DNA of 64,000 nucleotides from Candidatus Nealsonbacteria bacterium (GTDB lineage Bacteria; Patescibacteriota; Minisyncoccia; Minisyncoccales; MHMH01). Positions 45,001 to 51,000 of the stretch are shown here, in pieces. Where the stretch lies: the NCBI GenBank assembly GCA_043813805.1, contig JBDRKR010000020.1, positions 3,130 to 67,129 of the forward strand. The letters are read 5' to 3'. The position numbers were made by a program. The number at the start of each line of letters is the position of its first letter. The stretch's first letter is position 1.

Positions 45001-48000
45001 TTTCTTTTTGGTCTTTGGTTCCCGACAGAGCGGCCACTCTTTATCGGTATTCGGGAGAAATTGTCGGGCTGCTTTCTGTTTTCAATAACCACAGATTGGA
45101 GTTTAAAAGGCATACTTCCCTTGAAAAACATTACGCCAATTTATTGGAATTAATCGGGATAAAAGAATTTTCACCAAAAACGGAAATTTTTATCCGGCCG
45201 GAGGAAGAAAAAAAGGCTTCAAGTTTTCTGAAAGAGAACAATGTAACCGCTGATGATTTTTTAATCGGCATCAGTGCCACCGCCGGCATTAAGTTTAAAG
45301 AATGGGAACATGACAAATTCGCCGTTTTGGCCGATCAATTAACAGCGAAAATAAAAGCCAAGGTGATTTTTGTGGGGTCTCCGGATGACCGGCCTGCTAT
45401 TGAAAAAATTCAAAAAATGATGAAAAATAACAGTATCAATGCCGCCGGAGCTTTCAAACTGCAGGAACTGGCGGCTTTAATGAGAAATTTGAAATTATTC
45501 GTCAGCGTGGATTGCGGCCCCTTGTATGTGGCCGATGCCGCCGGCGTCCCTTCGGTGGTGATTGCAGGCTCTGTTGATATGCGAGAACAGCATCCTCTTA
45601 ATAGTATTTACAGAGTAGTTCAGAAAGATATTTATTGCTTCCCGTGCTCATTTACGCCTTTTCCCGCGCGGGTCTGCAAAGAAGGGCACTTGAGGTGCTT
45701 GAAAGAAATCACACCCGAAGAAGTTCTTGATTCGGTTGTGAAATTAATCAACGAGGAAAAATTATGAAATTTTTTGTTACCGGAGGCAGGGGATTCGTCG
45801 GCTTGAATTTAGTCGGGGAATTAAGAAAAAATCCCAAAAACAAGGTGTTGGTTTACGACAAAGACGTCTGCCGGAAAATCAAGCTGAAAAACGACTTTGA
45901 CGTCATTTATCATTTAGCGGCCAATACCGACACCCGTTATCCCGACGATGTTGATATGTACAGAAACAATATCGCGGGGTTTCTTAATATTCTGGATTTC
46001 GCCCTTAAAGGGAAGTCTAAGCTTGTTTACGCTTCCAGCGCCGCCATTTACGGTGATTATCAAAAAACCGCTTACGCCAATTCCAAGGAATTGGTTGATG
46101 AAATCGCCAAGTTTTTCTTTAACAGGCTTTCGATCGTCGGTTTAAGGTTTTTCAACGTTTACGGCCCCCATGAAAAACAAAAGGGCAAAATGGCCAGCAT
46201 GGTCACCAATTGGGCTTTGCAACTGAAAAGCGGCAAAAATCCCAAAGTTTTTAAGGAGGAGCGGCAGAGCAAGAGGGATTTTGTTTACGTTAAAGATATC
46301 GTTAAGGCGCTTCAAACCGCCATAAAAACAAAGAACGGCATTTATGACGCGGGAACCGGCAACCCCAGGACTTTTGATGACGTGTTGAAATCGGTTGAGG
46401 ACAACTTGGGTATTAAAAAAGAACCCATTTATATTTCCAATCCCTACAAGGGCAGGTATCAAAGATTTACCAAGGCTAAGCTGGGCTGGGGTTTTAAGCC
46501 GGATTACTCTTTAGAAGAGGGCGTTAAGGATTATCTAACCAATTACTTTCCCCGTTAAACTCATATTTTGACGGTTGTTGACGGGCTGTTGACGTCAGAC
46601 GTAAACAGTCCTTTTATTATTTTCTATAATAGTTCAAATGAAAGAGGCTAAACCTCTTTCATTTCTGTTGGGGGCTTGATTTTATATAGAAAAACTGTTA
46701 TTATGCGCCATTAACAATTTAATAAGGCAATAAAGAGGAGGTTATCGGAATGCAGAAAAGCGAATTGACTTTTGATGTGATTAAGGCGTTGAAAGAGGTC
46801 TCAGCTAAGTTTCAACCAGATTTATTTCAGGTGGTAAAAAAAGAGCTCTCGGTCAGCGATTTGAAACTGTTAGATTACGTCTTTACCACCTATTATCCGG
46901 AGGGCAATACGAAGGGCCGCTGGTATGATTCCTACCATGTTTTACTATCAACTCATTTTGCAGTTCAATTGGAAAGGACCAACGACTTAGTTTCGCCTTT
47001 GATTATTCCGGGAATTATCCTCCATGACCTCGGCTACACCGTCCTACCGGATGGAAGCAAAAAAAACTGGAGTACCGGTCAAAATCGCATTCTTCATATG
47101 CAGGAGGGCGCAGCGGTTGCCGCCAAATGTTTAGCCGAGATGGGATGTTATAATCCTTTTGAAATTGGCATTATCGTTGAGATGGTGGCTACTCATGACA
47201 ATTGGATCTTAGGGATACCGACCAGCGACGCCGATATTCTGGCATTGGTTGATGCCGACAAGGTATTTATCATGAGTTTCCTGAGTTTCTTCAAGGACTG
47301 GGTTTCGGAAATAGGTCATCCGGCTGATCTTTCTCTCCAAGATTTTTATCGATTACGCCAAGATTTATTTTATCAGGCACAAGTGCCGTTTACGGGCTTA
47401 GCCAAGCTATGGCGCGAAAGACAGTTTAAGGCTCGTTGGCAGGAAATCCAGCAGGATATCTTGAGAAACGAGACTTCTTTTCGGCAGTACGCCGAAAGAC
47501 ATATCCGAGCCGAATTAAGAGCCGGTAGAGGTTAAGAAAGGAGGTTAAGAATTGGAAGCATATATAGTTCCTGATTGGTTGACGATCATTGCCGGATTGG
47601 TTATTTCCCGGCGTAAAGTTTCGGAACAGCAAGTCCTTTTTGGCCTTCGTTCCGCAAGGGCGGAGGAAGGCAAGTGGTGTTTGCCAACAGGTTTAGGAGC
47701 CATTCGTCGAGATATTTCTGATGTATTGGCTTTAGGCGCGCCAGCTTCGCTTAAATATCCACTGGATGTTATCGTTGGAATGTCAGATAGGCACAAACAA
47801 GCGTTTACAACGCCCGCAGGCTTTGCTCTGGCAGAGGCAAGATGGTACATCGATATTCCTCAAGCGACAATTGAACAATTGGTACCACTGAAACCGATTT
47901 GTCAGCTTGATGGTAGGAGCCTTTTGGTAAAGATTTACTTTTGGCTTGATTGGCAATCTGACGAATTGCCCAAGCCGGCGAAAACCGAGTGGCCGTTCAA

Positions 48001-51000
48001 GGAAATCAAGTTCTTTTCTAAAGAAGATCTGAAGAATGTCCCTGTCGCCTTCGGGTGCGACAAAGATCTGGAAGATGCTTTTTGGCCATCAACTAAATAG
48101 CAGCTGTTTATTGTTAAGAAAAGGACAGGCACAAAGTCTGTCCTTTTTCATTTAAGCTGTAACACCTTTTGACACCTCTTGACACTCTGGTGTGAGGGTT
48201 CTATGATAAAAATATGGCAGAAATTAATCCCAAACAAATTTATACGACCGAAGAGGCCAGAAGCTTTCTGAAAATCAGCGAAAGCACGATTAAGCGGCTT
48301 TTAAAAAAAGGCACTCTCCGGGCCTATAAGGTGGGAGGTCAATACCGCATTTGGGGCGCGGAAATTTTACGATTGGTTTCGCCGGAAATTGAAGATAAGG
48401 TTTATCGCGTTTATAAAAAAATCAAAAATAGAGCCAAAAAAGCCATTGCCAAGTGGTAAACATGGAAAATATTATTAAGTCACTATTTGATAAGAATATT
48501 GAGCTTCATCAGGCGGTTAAAGATGAGTTGGCTCCCAAAATCGCCGAAGCCGCCAATTTAATCATTGATGCTTATACTCAAGGCAGAAAGCTTTTGCTTT
48601 GCGGGAATGGGGGCTCCGCCGCCGATTCTCAACATATTGCCGCAGAACTCGTGGGACGCTTCAAAAAAGAACGCAGGGGATTGCCGGCCGTGGCTCTGAC
48701 CACCGACACTTCTATCATGACGGCCATCGCCAACGATTATTGGTACGACGCATTATTTGCCCGCCAGGTTGAGGCCTTGGGCGACAAAGACGATATTTTA
48801 ATCGTGCTTTCCACCAGCGGTAATTCAACCAACGTCATCAGGGCTGTTGAGGCCGCCAAGTTCAAGGGTTTAAAAACGATCGGATTTTCAGGAGGCGACG
48901 GCGGCCAGTTGAAAGATTTGGTTGATGTCTCATTGATCGTGCCGTCTCAAGAAAGCGATCGGGTCCAGGAAATCCATATTTTAATGGCTCATATTATTTG
49001 CCAGTTGATTGATTCCAAAATTTCTTAAAGCATATGGAAAATTATTCAGATCTTCTTAAAAAATTTAAAAACTCCCAAGTCCTGGTCGTAGGCGATTTAA
49101 TGATGGACGAATATTTATGGGGTAATGTTGATCGGATTTCGCCTGAAGCTCCTATCCCCGTCTTGGATGTCAAAAAAATTGATTTTCGGCCGGGTGGAGC
49201 GGCCAATGCCGCCTACAATGTTAAGTCGCTGGGCGATAAAGTATTTTTAGTGGGGGTCGTGGGCGTTGATGAAAAAGGCGCGATTTTAAAAAAGCTTTTG
49301 GAAGAAAAAGGAATTAACGCTGACGGAATCGTTTTTGACAATCAAAGAAAAACCACTGTTAAAGCAAGGGTGGTCGCCAAAAATCAGCAAATTGTCAGAA
49401 TTGACATTGAAGATAAAACACCGATCGTTCCGGAGATTGAGGAAAAAATCCTTACTTTTATCAGGGAACGCGTTAAAGATTTGGGAGCCATTATTATTTC
49501 CGATTACGGAAAAGGAGTAATCACCCCAACTTTGTGCCAGCAAATTATCGCCCTGGCCAAAGAAAATAATGTTTTATCTCTGGTTGACCCCAAAGGAACC
49601 GATATTCTTAAATATCGGGGATGCACCATTATCGCCCCCAACAAAAAAGAGTTGAGCGTGGCTTTGAATGTTCCTTTGGAGCAATTAGCCCAGGAGGGCA
49701 GGTTTTTACAGGCCGGTAAAATGATGATGGCTCATATCATGTCGGATAACGTTTTGGTTAAATGCGGAGACGAGGGCATGACCTTGTTTGAAAAGAACGG
49801 CAATATCTTTCATTTTCCCGCGCTTAATCAAAAGGCGATTGATGTTTCGGGCGCCGGCGATACGGCGATCGGCGTTTTTGCTTTAGCTTTAGCGAGCGGC
49901 ATTCAAAAACAGGAAGCCGTAGTTTTGGCGAGCCACGCCTGTTCCATCAAGGTGAGCAAGGTGGGAACTTCCGTTGTTGTGCCCGAAGAATTAGAGGTAA
50001 GTCTGGCAAATTATGTCTATCCAACCCAAAATTAAAACTCAAAAAGAAATTATCGGGATCTGCCGAAGTTTCAAGAAACGCAAAAAAACAGTCGTTACCT
50101 GTAACGGCAGTTTTGATATCTTGCACGCGGGTCATTTCCAGCGTTTGAAAGAGGCTAAGGCGCAAGGAGACGTTTTGATTGTTTGTTTAAACAGCGATCA
50201 ATCTGTCCGTGCTTATAAGGGACCGGGCCGGCCGATTAATAAACAGGCCGTGCGGGTCCAAAATTTGGTTGTTTTGCCATATATTGATTACCTGGTCGTT
50301 TTTAACGAGTTGAATCCCAAAAATATTTTAAACAAGATTAAGCCCGATATCCATTGCGTGGGCAGGGATTGGGGTAAAAACTGCGTTGAAAGAGACGTGG
50401 TTGAAAAAAACGGAGGAAAAATTTATGTGGCTAAATGGCTCAAGGGTTTTTCCACATCTGATATCATAAAAACTCCGAAGATTGGGGCGATTTTTTTAGA
50501 CAGAGATGGCGTCATTAATATCAACGAGCCGGAGTATGTCCATCGGATTGAAGATTTTAAGTTTGTTCCCCGGGCCTTACCCGCCCTAAGAAGACTTTCG
50601 CAGACTGACTATAAAATTATTATTGCGACCAATCAGTCGGGAATTGGCCGGGAATATTATACGGAAAAAGATTTGGAGGTTCTCCATCAATGGATGTTGC
50701 GACGGTTTAAAAAAGAGGGGATTAGAATTGATAAAATCTATTATTGTCCTCATGCGCCTGGCCAAAAGTGCAATTGCCGGAAACCGAAAACCGGAATGAT
50801 TGAGCAGGCGGTCAAGGATTTTGGCATTAATCTCAGTAAAAGCTGGATTATCGGCGATTCTGAAAGAGATATTCAAATGGGTAAAGAAGTAAATCTTAAG
50901 ACTATTTTATTGGGAGGCGAGGTAAAAAATCTTGCTGAAGCCGTAAAAATCATTCTTCAATGAAAGTTTTATTTATTACCAAAGATTTTATCATTGAGCC

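Follow-up and report, generated by a model that had tools for sequence, protein, structure and literature searches.

Introduction

Among the described proteins that come closest to those treated here are two Nudix-fold enzymes of Escherichia coli, WcaH (also NudD or Gmm, a GDP-mannose mannosyl hydrolase) and AspP (NudF, an ADP-sugar pyrophosphatase), both of which act on nucleotide sugars. The gene for WcaH lies in the polysaccharide cluster for colanic acid, and the enzyme presumably adjusts the size of the precursor pool. In the Candidate Phyla Radiation (CPR), surface glycans are probably central to host attachment and, to our knowledge, almost nothing is known about their synthesis and control. 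Nudix-like domains also serve as effector domains for ADP-ribose and arabinose in regulators of the NrtR family (PMC2330246, PMC4666351). Here we report on three plus-strand open reading frames (ORFs) found in a 64-kb stretch of the uncultured, groundwater-type bacterium Candidatus Nealsonbacteria (assembly GCA_043813805.1, contig JBDRKR010000020.1, positions 3,130 to 67,129), hereafter the window, which is a glycan-synthesis locus with nearly all genes on one strand. The three ORFs lie between an hldD-like gene (end 46558) and gmhA (ATG at 48462) and encode an HD-domain protein (ORF1), a degenerate Nudix protein (ORF2) and a helix-turn-helix (HTH) protein. The best overall explanation, which we regard as fairly probable, is that they form a native, lineage-conserved part of a heptose-glycan locus, in which the HD and pseudo-Nudix proteins would control a precursor pool and the HTH protein would regulate its own operon.

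The inferred role of ORF2 on an ADP-sugar pool would parallel the precursor tuning by WcaH/Gmm and AspP. However, these are single, catalytically active Nudix enzymes, whereas ORF2 retains one acidic residue of the Nudix box (E95), carries an insertion of about 40 amino acids (aa) and has an HD partner. There is also no sequence-level relationship between them, since an exhaustive profile search with ORF2 over 1.84 billion representative proteins found only 9 clusters. NrtR (3gz8; PMC2330246) is comparable to what we propose for ORF2, since its Nudix domain is non-catalytic and recognises an ADP-linked ligand, with an HTH providing the regulatory context, but in NrtR the Nudix domain and a C-terminal winged HTH share one chain, and the genes under its control are NAD genes. 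ORF2, in contrast, is 182 aa long and Nudix only, the HTH_17 domain being encoded by a separate gene in another transcription unit, behind a terminator, and ORF2 persists in loci without the HTH gene.

ORF1 shares an all-helical fold and the residue order H...HD...H...HD...D with HD phosphohydrolases and phosphodiesterases (YpgQ 5dqv, YedJ 3gw7, YhaM 9h3f, HDDC2 4l7e and PDE10). Unlike them, it has unique N- and C-terminal helices and a family-specific RWYD motif, and the fold matches are weak. Finally, the HTH protein is small and single-domain as are excisionase-family or MerR-like HTH_17 regulators (TIGR01764, PF12728). Its gene, unlike those of excisionases, has a fixed place as the first of a sugar-nucleotide operon and lies behind a conserved direct-repeat promoter, and no integrase family was found among the nine flanking genes scanned (43204-52312).

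ORF1 and ORF2 represent two uncharacterised families, tens of clusters among billions of proteins, which are nearly always found together in the heptose-glycan loci of these ultra-small CPR bacteria. With a small regulator whose direct-repeat promoter is unusually well conserved, the set of regulator, putative operator and accessory enzyme pair provides an entry point to the control of CPR glycans.

Conserved position and ordinary composition of the three genes

The three genes and their ribosome-binding sites are as follows.

46750-47535, + strand: ORF1, predicted divergent HD-domain metal-dependent phosphohydrolase, 261 aa, preceded by the Shine-Dalgarno (SD) sequence AAGAGGAGG at 46733-46741
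47552-48100, + strand: ORF2, starting with TTG and encoding a 182-aa Nudix-fold protein whose Nudix box is degenerate, SD sequence AAAGGAGG at 47537-47544
48214-48459, + strand: 81-aa DNA-binding protein of the HTH_17 / excisionase family, whose gene opens the gmhA-hldA-hldC/gmhB-radical SAM operon

An earlier note, made from the sequence alone, had already described three such genes between hldD and gmhA, with an HD domain, a TTG-initiated degenerate Nudix and an excisionase-type HTH, as well as the two strong SD sequences, and all of these identifications were right. It had further considered the stretch to be a G+C-rich island and an acquired cassette, which the data below do not bear out.

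Relatives were compared in loci numbered from L001 to L027. The order in L021/L022 is identical to that in the window (radical SAM-GT9-hldD-ORF1-ORF2-HTH-gmhA-hldA-hldC/gmhB-radical SAM-methyltransferase-methyltransferase-GT4), with identities of 42-78%. In L018 we found hldD-ORF1-ORF2-HTH, in L023 and L027 ORF1-Nudix-HTH-gmhA-PfkB, and in L001 GT9-ORF1-ORF2-gmhA-hldA-hldC/gmhB without the HTH gene. L003-type loci carry ORF1-ORF2-HTH followed by a different sugar-nucleotide set (hldC-like, PfkB), and in L011 and L024 the pair sits between divergently transcribed heptose genes and GT9. Position is therefore conserved across the lineage in L021/L022, L018, L023, L027, L001, L003, L011 and L024, a result that the earlier note had itself named as speaking against its cassette. 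Overall, ORF1 and ORF2 are adjacent in all loci but one and lie nearly always within heptose clusters, and every relative found carries the genes at this site, the loci all having been seeded with ORF1 or ORF2. The window proteins ORF1 and ORF2 are 100% identical to ABIG29_02440 and ABIG29_02445, two hypothetical proteins from a metagenome-assembled genome of Candidatus Nealsonbacteria (CPR/Parcubacteria).

The composition of the stretch is close to that of its surroundings. Its G+C content (46559-48461) is 43.1%, compared with 41.3% for the window, which corresponds to the 78th percentile of equal-sized windows. ORF1 and ORF2 together reach 45.2% (96th percentile), below the flanking gmhA (46.6%), and the HTH gene has 41.1%. 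By tetranucleotide distance the whole stretch is at the 90th percentile and ORF1 plus ORF2 at the 97.8th. G+C at third codon positions (GC3) is 0.477 in ORF1 and 0.432 in ORF2, for a gene mean of 0.464, and the codon-usage z score of ORF2 (2.0) matches that of hldD (1.97). Because the excess in ORF1 and ORF2 sits at codon positions 1 and 2 (GC1 of 0.51 and 0.54) while GC3 is ordinary, the slight rise reflects amino-acid composition and not a foreign mutational signature. Once the sliding G+C and tetranucleotide values were computed, the compositional deviation that had been seen by eye was thus not confirmed. There is also no tRNA within the window, no match to mobility, integrase or recombinase families among the nine flanking genes, no long flanking direct repeat in a repeat scan, and no relative of ORF1 or ORF2 in viral contigs. 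A defence-system or phage origin of the pair was rejected, as neither PADLOC nor PHROGs gave a match.

Two probable transcription units with conserved signals

The region very probably consists of two native transcription units, an ORF1-ORF2 operon and an HTH-gmhA-hldA-hldC/gmhB-radical SAM operon. They are delimited by the following elements.

46676-46704, + strand: ORF1 promoter of the sigma-70 type, TTGATT, 17 nucleotides (nt), TGnTATTAT
46705-46727, + strand: discriminator and leader GCGCCATTAACAATTTAATAAGG, unique in the window and near-identical in L003, L017 and L018
48118-48148, + strand: intrinsic terminator of the ORF1-ORF2 operon (GC core 48123-48130/48136-48143, T-run 48144-48148; folding free energy, dG, -18.2, z -6.2)
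48159-48185, + strand: three 10-bp direct repeats, GTAACACCTT / TTGACACCTC / TTGACAC, the last being the -35 hexamer (48179-48184)
48202-48207, + strand: -10 hexamer TATGAT, 6 nt before the ATG of the HTH gene (promoter with 11/12 matches, no SD)

The promoters, the clean terminator, a bounding hairpin and TTGAC-repeat regions had all been pointed out in the earlier note and could be recovered here. Two promoters were found, one before ORF1 and one before the HTH gene, and four tandem TTGAC sites occur in the 64 kb (0.37 expected), of which three fall in the two intergenic regions of the trio.

At the ORF1 promoter, CTTGATTTT is invariant in 7 loci, and a -10 TATAAT and the spacing are kept in several of these. 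Promoter and leader are 81% nucleotide-identical to those of L018, compared with only about 50% for the ORF1 body. The leader may be an operator or a linear leader element. It has no stable RNA fold (z 0.16), so a riboswitch or attenuator in the ORF1 leader was dropped, and an Rfam scan of 46400-48600 returned nothing beyond two sub-threshold matches. The segment 46699-46727 reads as the -10/discriminator TATAATGCGCC followed by ATTAACAATTTAATAAGG, with counterparts upstream of ORF1 in L003, L017 and L018, and contains a short inverted repeat, ATTAA-N4-TTAAT. The -10/discriminator sequence is reminiscent of the discriminator, rich in G+C, of the E. coli rrnB P1 promoter.

The interval between ORF2 and the HTH gene has the same layout across loci, that is, a terminator hairpin and then two or three 10-bp TTGAC(A/C)CC repeats of which the last is the -35 element. 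The position and form of the terminator are kept in L003, L015 and L016, with different stem sequences. Downstream of the -35, a spacer (17 nt in the window) is followed by TATGAT or TACAAT, usually 6 nt from the ATG and without SD, and the spacing from -10 to ATG is kept in L003, L015, L016, L021 and L027. Since the -10 is only 6 nt from the ATG and no SD is present, the HTH mRNA is probably leaderless or nearly so. The tandem TTGACACCTCTTGACAC is found upstream of the HTH gene wherever the gene is present, and it is the sole tandem TTGAC site in the loci scanned from among L001 to L027. Judging from this conservation, the repeats are probably the operator of the HTH protein.

The HTH protein itself scores well above the cut-offs of PF12728 (45.8 bits, cut-off 27) and TIGR01764 (43.0 bits, cut-off 28.8), is 65-81% identical across loci and is better conserved than ORF1. 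Its gene heads a heptose operon in at least 8 distinct loci. In the window, 2 nt separate its stop codon from the gmhA ATG. The HTH gene likewise runs up to or into the following gene in L003, L016, L023 and L027, also when that gene is hldC-like instead of gmhA; L021 has a 26-nt gap. The HTH gene may therefore be translationally coupled to the next gene. As regards an excisionase role, neither integrase nor recombinase families turned up in the nine-gene scan. With the repeats, promoter, HTH sequence and stop/start abutment all conserved, the gene can be regarded as the leaderless head of an operon that it would regulate itself, and the protein, encoded behind the conserved tandem TTGACACC repeats, is probably an autoregulator. 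The same conservation supports the alternative offered in the earlier note, in which the HTH protein, as first gene, would be the local regulator of the gmhA operon.

Further elements lie upstream of the ORF1 promoter.

46568-46594, + strand: direct repeats of TTGACG(G), three in number and recurring every 10-11 nt, right after the hldD stop, found in the window only
46602-46630, + strand: promoter-like site TAAACA-17-TATAAT, 10/12 matches, not seen conserved in relatives
46636-46664, + strand: hairpin with a perfect 12-bp stem and a 5-nt loop (dG -17.3 kcal/mol, z -3.9)

The hairpin is probably the terminator of the upstream GT9-hldD unit, and relatives also have a hairpin just 5' of the ORF1 promoter. 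The promoter-like site may be fortuitous in an AT-rich spacer. The syntenic loci L018 and L021 lack the TTGACG(G) repeats; their TTGAC core is common to the HTH-promoter repeats, and they could be a second HTH site or due to chance.

ORF1 and ORF2 as an HD and pseudo-Nudix pair

Compared with the Pfam HD family (PF01966), ORF1 gives an E value of 0.02 and 15.6 bits, below the 22-bit cut-off, and 9 of the 27 ORF1 family members match PF01966 at E <= 0.1, the best at 3.4e-5. Across 19 distant members (relatives 32-62% identical), H63, H92, H116, H149, D150, D168 and D170 are invariant and D93 nearly so, and the H...HD...D metal-binding motif of the HD superfamily is present. The structural model of ORF1 is all helical, with a predicted local distance difference test (pLDDT) score of 91.8, and its best PDB fold matches are HD proteins and phosphodiesterases of the PDE type, although these are weak (Foldseek E 0.026-0.5, template-modelling scores 0.44-0.50). 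The HD identity, a weak match to PF01966, is thus backed by the invariant residues and by these fold matches. Six candidate ligands are conserved, which is suggestive of a two-metal site. Neither family had a significant sequence match among PDB chains; a motif match to 1zbm (E 0.034) was treated as chance.

By profile search the ORF1 family comprises 79 clusters, including a few non-CPR members. Its proteins come in a short form of about 258 aa and a long form of 275-291 aa, which do not track the flanking genes. No fused HD-Nudix protein was apparent, the longest ORF1 relative listed (348 aa) being too short to contain an added Nudix domain of about 140 aa.

ORF2 matches nothing in Pfam or NCBIfam. 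Its model (pLDDT 91.6) nevertheless has a clear Nudix fold. The top Foldseek match is the Nudix domain of NrtR (3gz8, E 1.4e-6), and 92 PDB matches have E < 1e-3, all 50 among the matches listed being Nudix-domain proteins. A bridge to the sequence family is given by L024, where the ORF2 position, after ORF1, is taken by a 148-aa protein with a Pfam NUDIX score above the cut-off (PF00293, 35.3 bits); hhalign gives a probability of 93% for its alignment with the ORF2 family, indicating homology. This case also speaks for the partnership of the two proteins. According to this alignment, the catalytic box GX5EX7REUXEEXGU is not kept in ORF2, the sole survivor being E95 (the Glu of 'RE'), with the preceding R replaced by A94 and 'EE' by W98 and Y99. 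There is no acidic residue six positions after G47 or G49. A helical insertion of about 40 aa covers roughly residues 50-87. The TTG-started degenerate Nudix protein of the earlier note is in this way upheld, by the model for the fold and by the box for its degeneracy. The antisense ORF that it had also listed exists as well:

47545-47850, - strand: antisense ORF of 101 aa, a shadow and no gene, lying across from the best-conserved portion of ORF2, which in its sense frame gives the model with pLDDT 91.6

From these data, the HD/pseudo-Nudix pair is a rare, uncharacterised family. Literature searches on ADP-heptose with Nudix, and on Nealsonbacteria with heptose, yielded nothing of relevance.

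Proposed function and alternatives

In the mechanism that we propose, the pseudo-Nudix protein ORF2 would bind an ADP-linked ligand, either ADP-heptose or the ADP/AMP by-product of the heptosyltransferase, and the HD protein ORF1 would carry out hydrolysis, so that the two would jointly cut back or recycle the pool of ADP-heptose or adenine nucleotides. The HTH protein would bind the 10-bp TTGACACC repeats around its own promoter, autoregulate the gmhA-hldA-hldC/gmhB operon and thereby set the expression of the heptose pathway. The substrate, the ORF1-ORF2 partnership and the binding of the HTH protein to the repeats are inferred, and the biochemical role given to ORF1 and ORF2 is tentative. 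A more specific version is a little more doubtful. According to it, the HD and degenerate Nudix proteins would constitute an undescribed two-subunit ADP-heptose (ADP-sugar) hydrolase or sensor, the Nudix protein only recognising the ligand and the HD protein performing the reaction at a site with six candidate metal ligands. This pair would be restricted to CPR/Parcubacteria heptose-glycan loci and stand beside a dedicated, leaderless HTH_17 autoregulator recognising 10-bp TTGACACC direct repeats. If true, a Nudix fold would have been recruited as the non-catalytic partner of an HD hydrolase.

Several observations weigh against this picture. No gap in the pathway prescribes a role for ORF1 and ORF2, because GmhA, HldA, GmhB, HldC and HldD are all encoded without them. 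The neighbours of non-CPR ORF1 homologues (Psychrilyobacter, Pirellulales) are unrelated, the pair lacks recognisable heptose genes nearby in L013/L014, ORF2 occurs without ORF1 in L007, and the HTH gene is missing from L001, L011 and L024. Empty hldD-gmhA junctions fall outside a sampling in which every comparison locus was seeded with ORF1 or ORF2, and, compared with L018, ORF1 and ORF2 are only 42% and 58% identical at the protein level next to an hldD of 87% (75% at the nucleotide level).

The divergence from L018 also bears on whether the three genes were inserted between hldD and gmhA as a horizontally acquired cassette. Such an origin could account for this mosaic, for the slightly higher G+C content and tetranucleotide distance of ORF1 plus ORF2 (45.2%, 96th percentile; 97.8th percentile), for the promoters and terminator that the stretch has of its own, and for the rarity of the family, which has 1 match among GTDB species representatives. 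We nevertheless consider it very improbable. Several independent relatives have these genes in the same place, neither GC3 nor codon usage is unusual, and the flanking gmhA is richer in G+C. Moreover, the window has no tRNA, the nine scanned neighbours include no mobility family, and ORF1 and ORF2 are without relatives in viral contigs and in phage or defence families. The ORF1-ORF2 pair of the window is closest to that of L003-type loci (60% and 80%) and its flanks are closest to L018, L021 and L001; this mosaic points to allele exchange among related loci while the position stayed fixed, or to strongly unequal rates of evolution, rather than to a foreign insertion, and some exchange within the locus has probably happened. 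Discarding the foreign G+C-rich island prevents a false call of horizontal transfer.

Two other explanations accept the genes as native and differ on what ORF1 and ORF2 do. They might be biosynthetic enzymes modifying a heptose precursor, for instance through an alternative sugar-phosphate phosphatase or phosphodiesterase step that gives a different activated or phosphorylated heptose. Their tight linkage to GT9, PfkB-type kinases, nucleotidyltransferases, many B12 radical SAM enzymes and methyltransferases fits such a role, as do L003-type loci without a recognisable GmhB (HAD) or GmhA beside the kinase and nucleotidyltransferase, and the HAD phosphatase genes that precede ORF1 in L011 and L013. 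We judge it unlikely, given that a GmhB fused to HldC is already encoded in the window, L001, L021 and L023 and that the degenerate box speaks against a catalytic Nudix step. Alternatively, a split NrtR-like system might have ORF2, as a non-catalytic Nudix protein, sense ADP-heptose or heptose and act with the HTH protein on the heptose operon, leaving the HD protein as an accessory. The best structural match of ORF2 is indeed the ADP-ribose-binding NrtR domain (3gz8, E 1.4e-6), its box is degenerate, the HTH gene follows it in most loci, and Nudix-like effectors have precedents in the NrtR family (PMC2330246, PMC4666351). Yet ORF2 is co-operonic with ORF1 and not with the HTH gene, from which a conserved terminator and promoter separate it; L001, L011 and L024 keep ORF1 and a Nudix gene without the HTH gene, and the NrtR match is only marginally better than those to catalytic Nudix enzymes. 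This makes an NrtR-like system quite improbable.

Genes around the trio and related loci

Around the trio, the window contains some 12 paralogous genes for B12-binding radical SAM proteins, one for a GT9 heptosyltransferase and the full ADP-heptose pathway. In the nine-gene scan of the flanks, 8 genes matched enzyme families for the synthesis of sugar nucleotides or glycans. The genes of the ADP-heptose pathway next to the trio are listed below.

45764-46558: HldD-like epimerase (TIGR02197, 211.6 bits, below the 274.6 cut-off)
48462-49028, + strand: gmhA, sedoheptulose-7-phosphate isomerase (TIGR00441, 224.7 bits, above the cut-off)
49034-50035: HldA, ADP-heptose pathway gene
50013-50963: HldC/GmhB fusion, ADP-heptose pathway gene

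The HldD-like protein, of only 264 aa, is a shortened variant of ADP-heptose 6-epimerase.

At 10001-11133 of L007 (GCA_016181985.1), an ORF2 homologue with 65% identity is followed by an overlapping gene for a 195-aa protein and then by one for a PaaX_M-domain protein. The 195-aa protein has no Pfam match and no similarity to ORF1, and was rejected as a cryptic ORF1 (hhalign probability 0.05%).

In other loci, genes for PQ-loop / SemiSWEET-type transporters lie directly upstream of ORF1 (L003 9267-9875, L015 288-902, L017 upstream of 697, L023 2731-3245), L023 having two half-size genes of this type side by side. Downstream of the HTH gene, L003 11667-14564 encodes an HldC-like nucleotidyltransferase, a PfkB kinase, a cupin / lyxose-isomerase-like protein and a transaldolase. 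Neither GmhA nor GmhB could be recognised in this set, which hints at an alternative route to activated heptose. In the window, the B12-binding radical SAM paralogues, about 12 in one glycan locus of about 60 kb, are found at 16157-22112, 23977-25380, 30148-31671, 33931-35364, 43204-44619, 50960-52312, 54088-57194 and 62048-63583, and such a density of cobalamin-dependent radical SAM enzymes is unusual for a reduced CPR genome.

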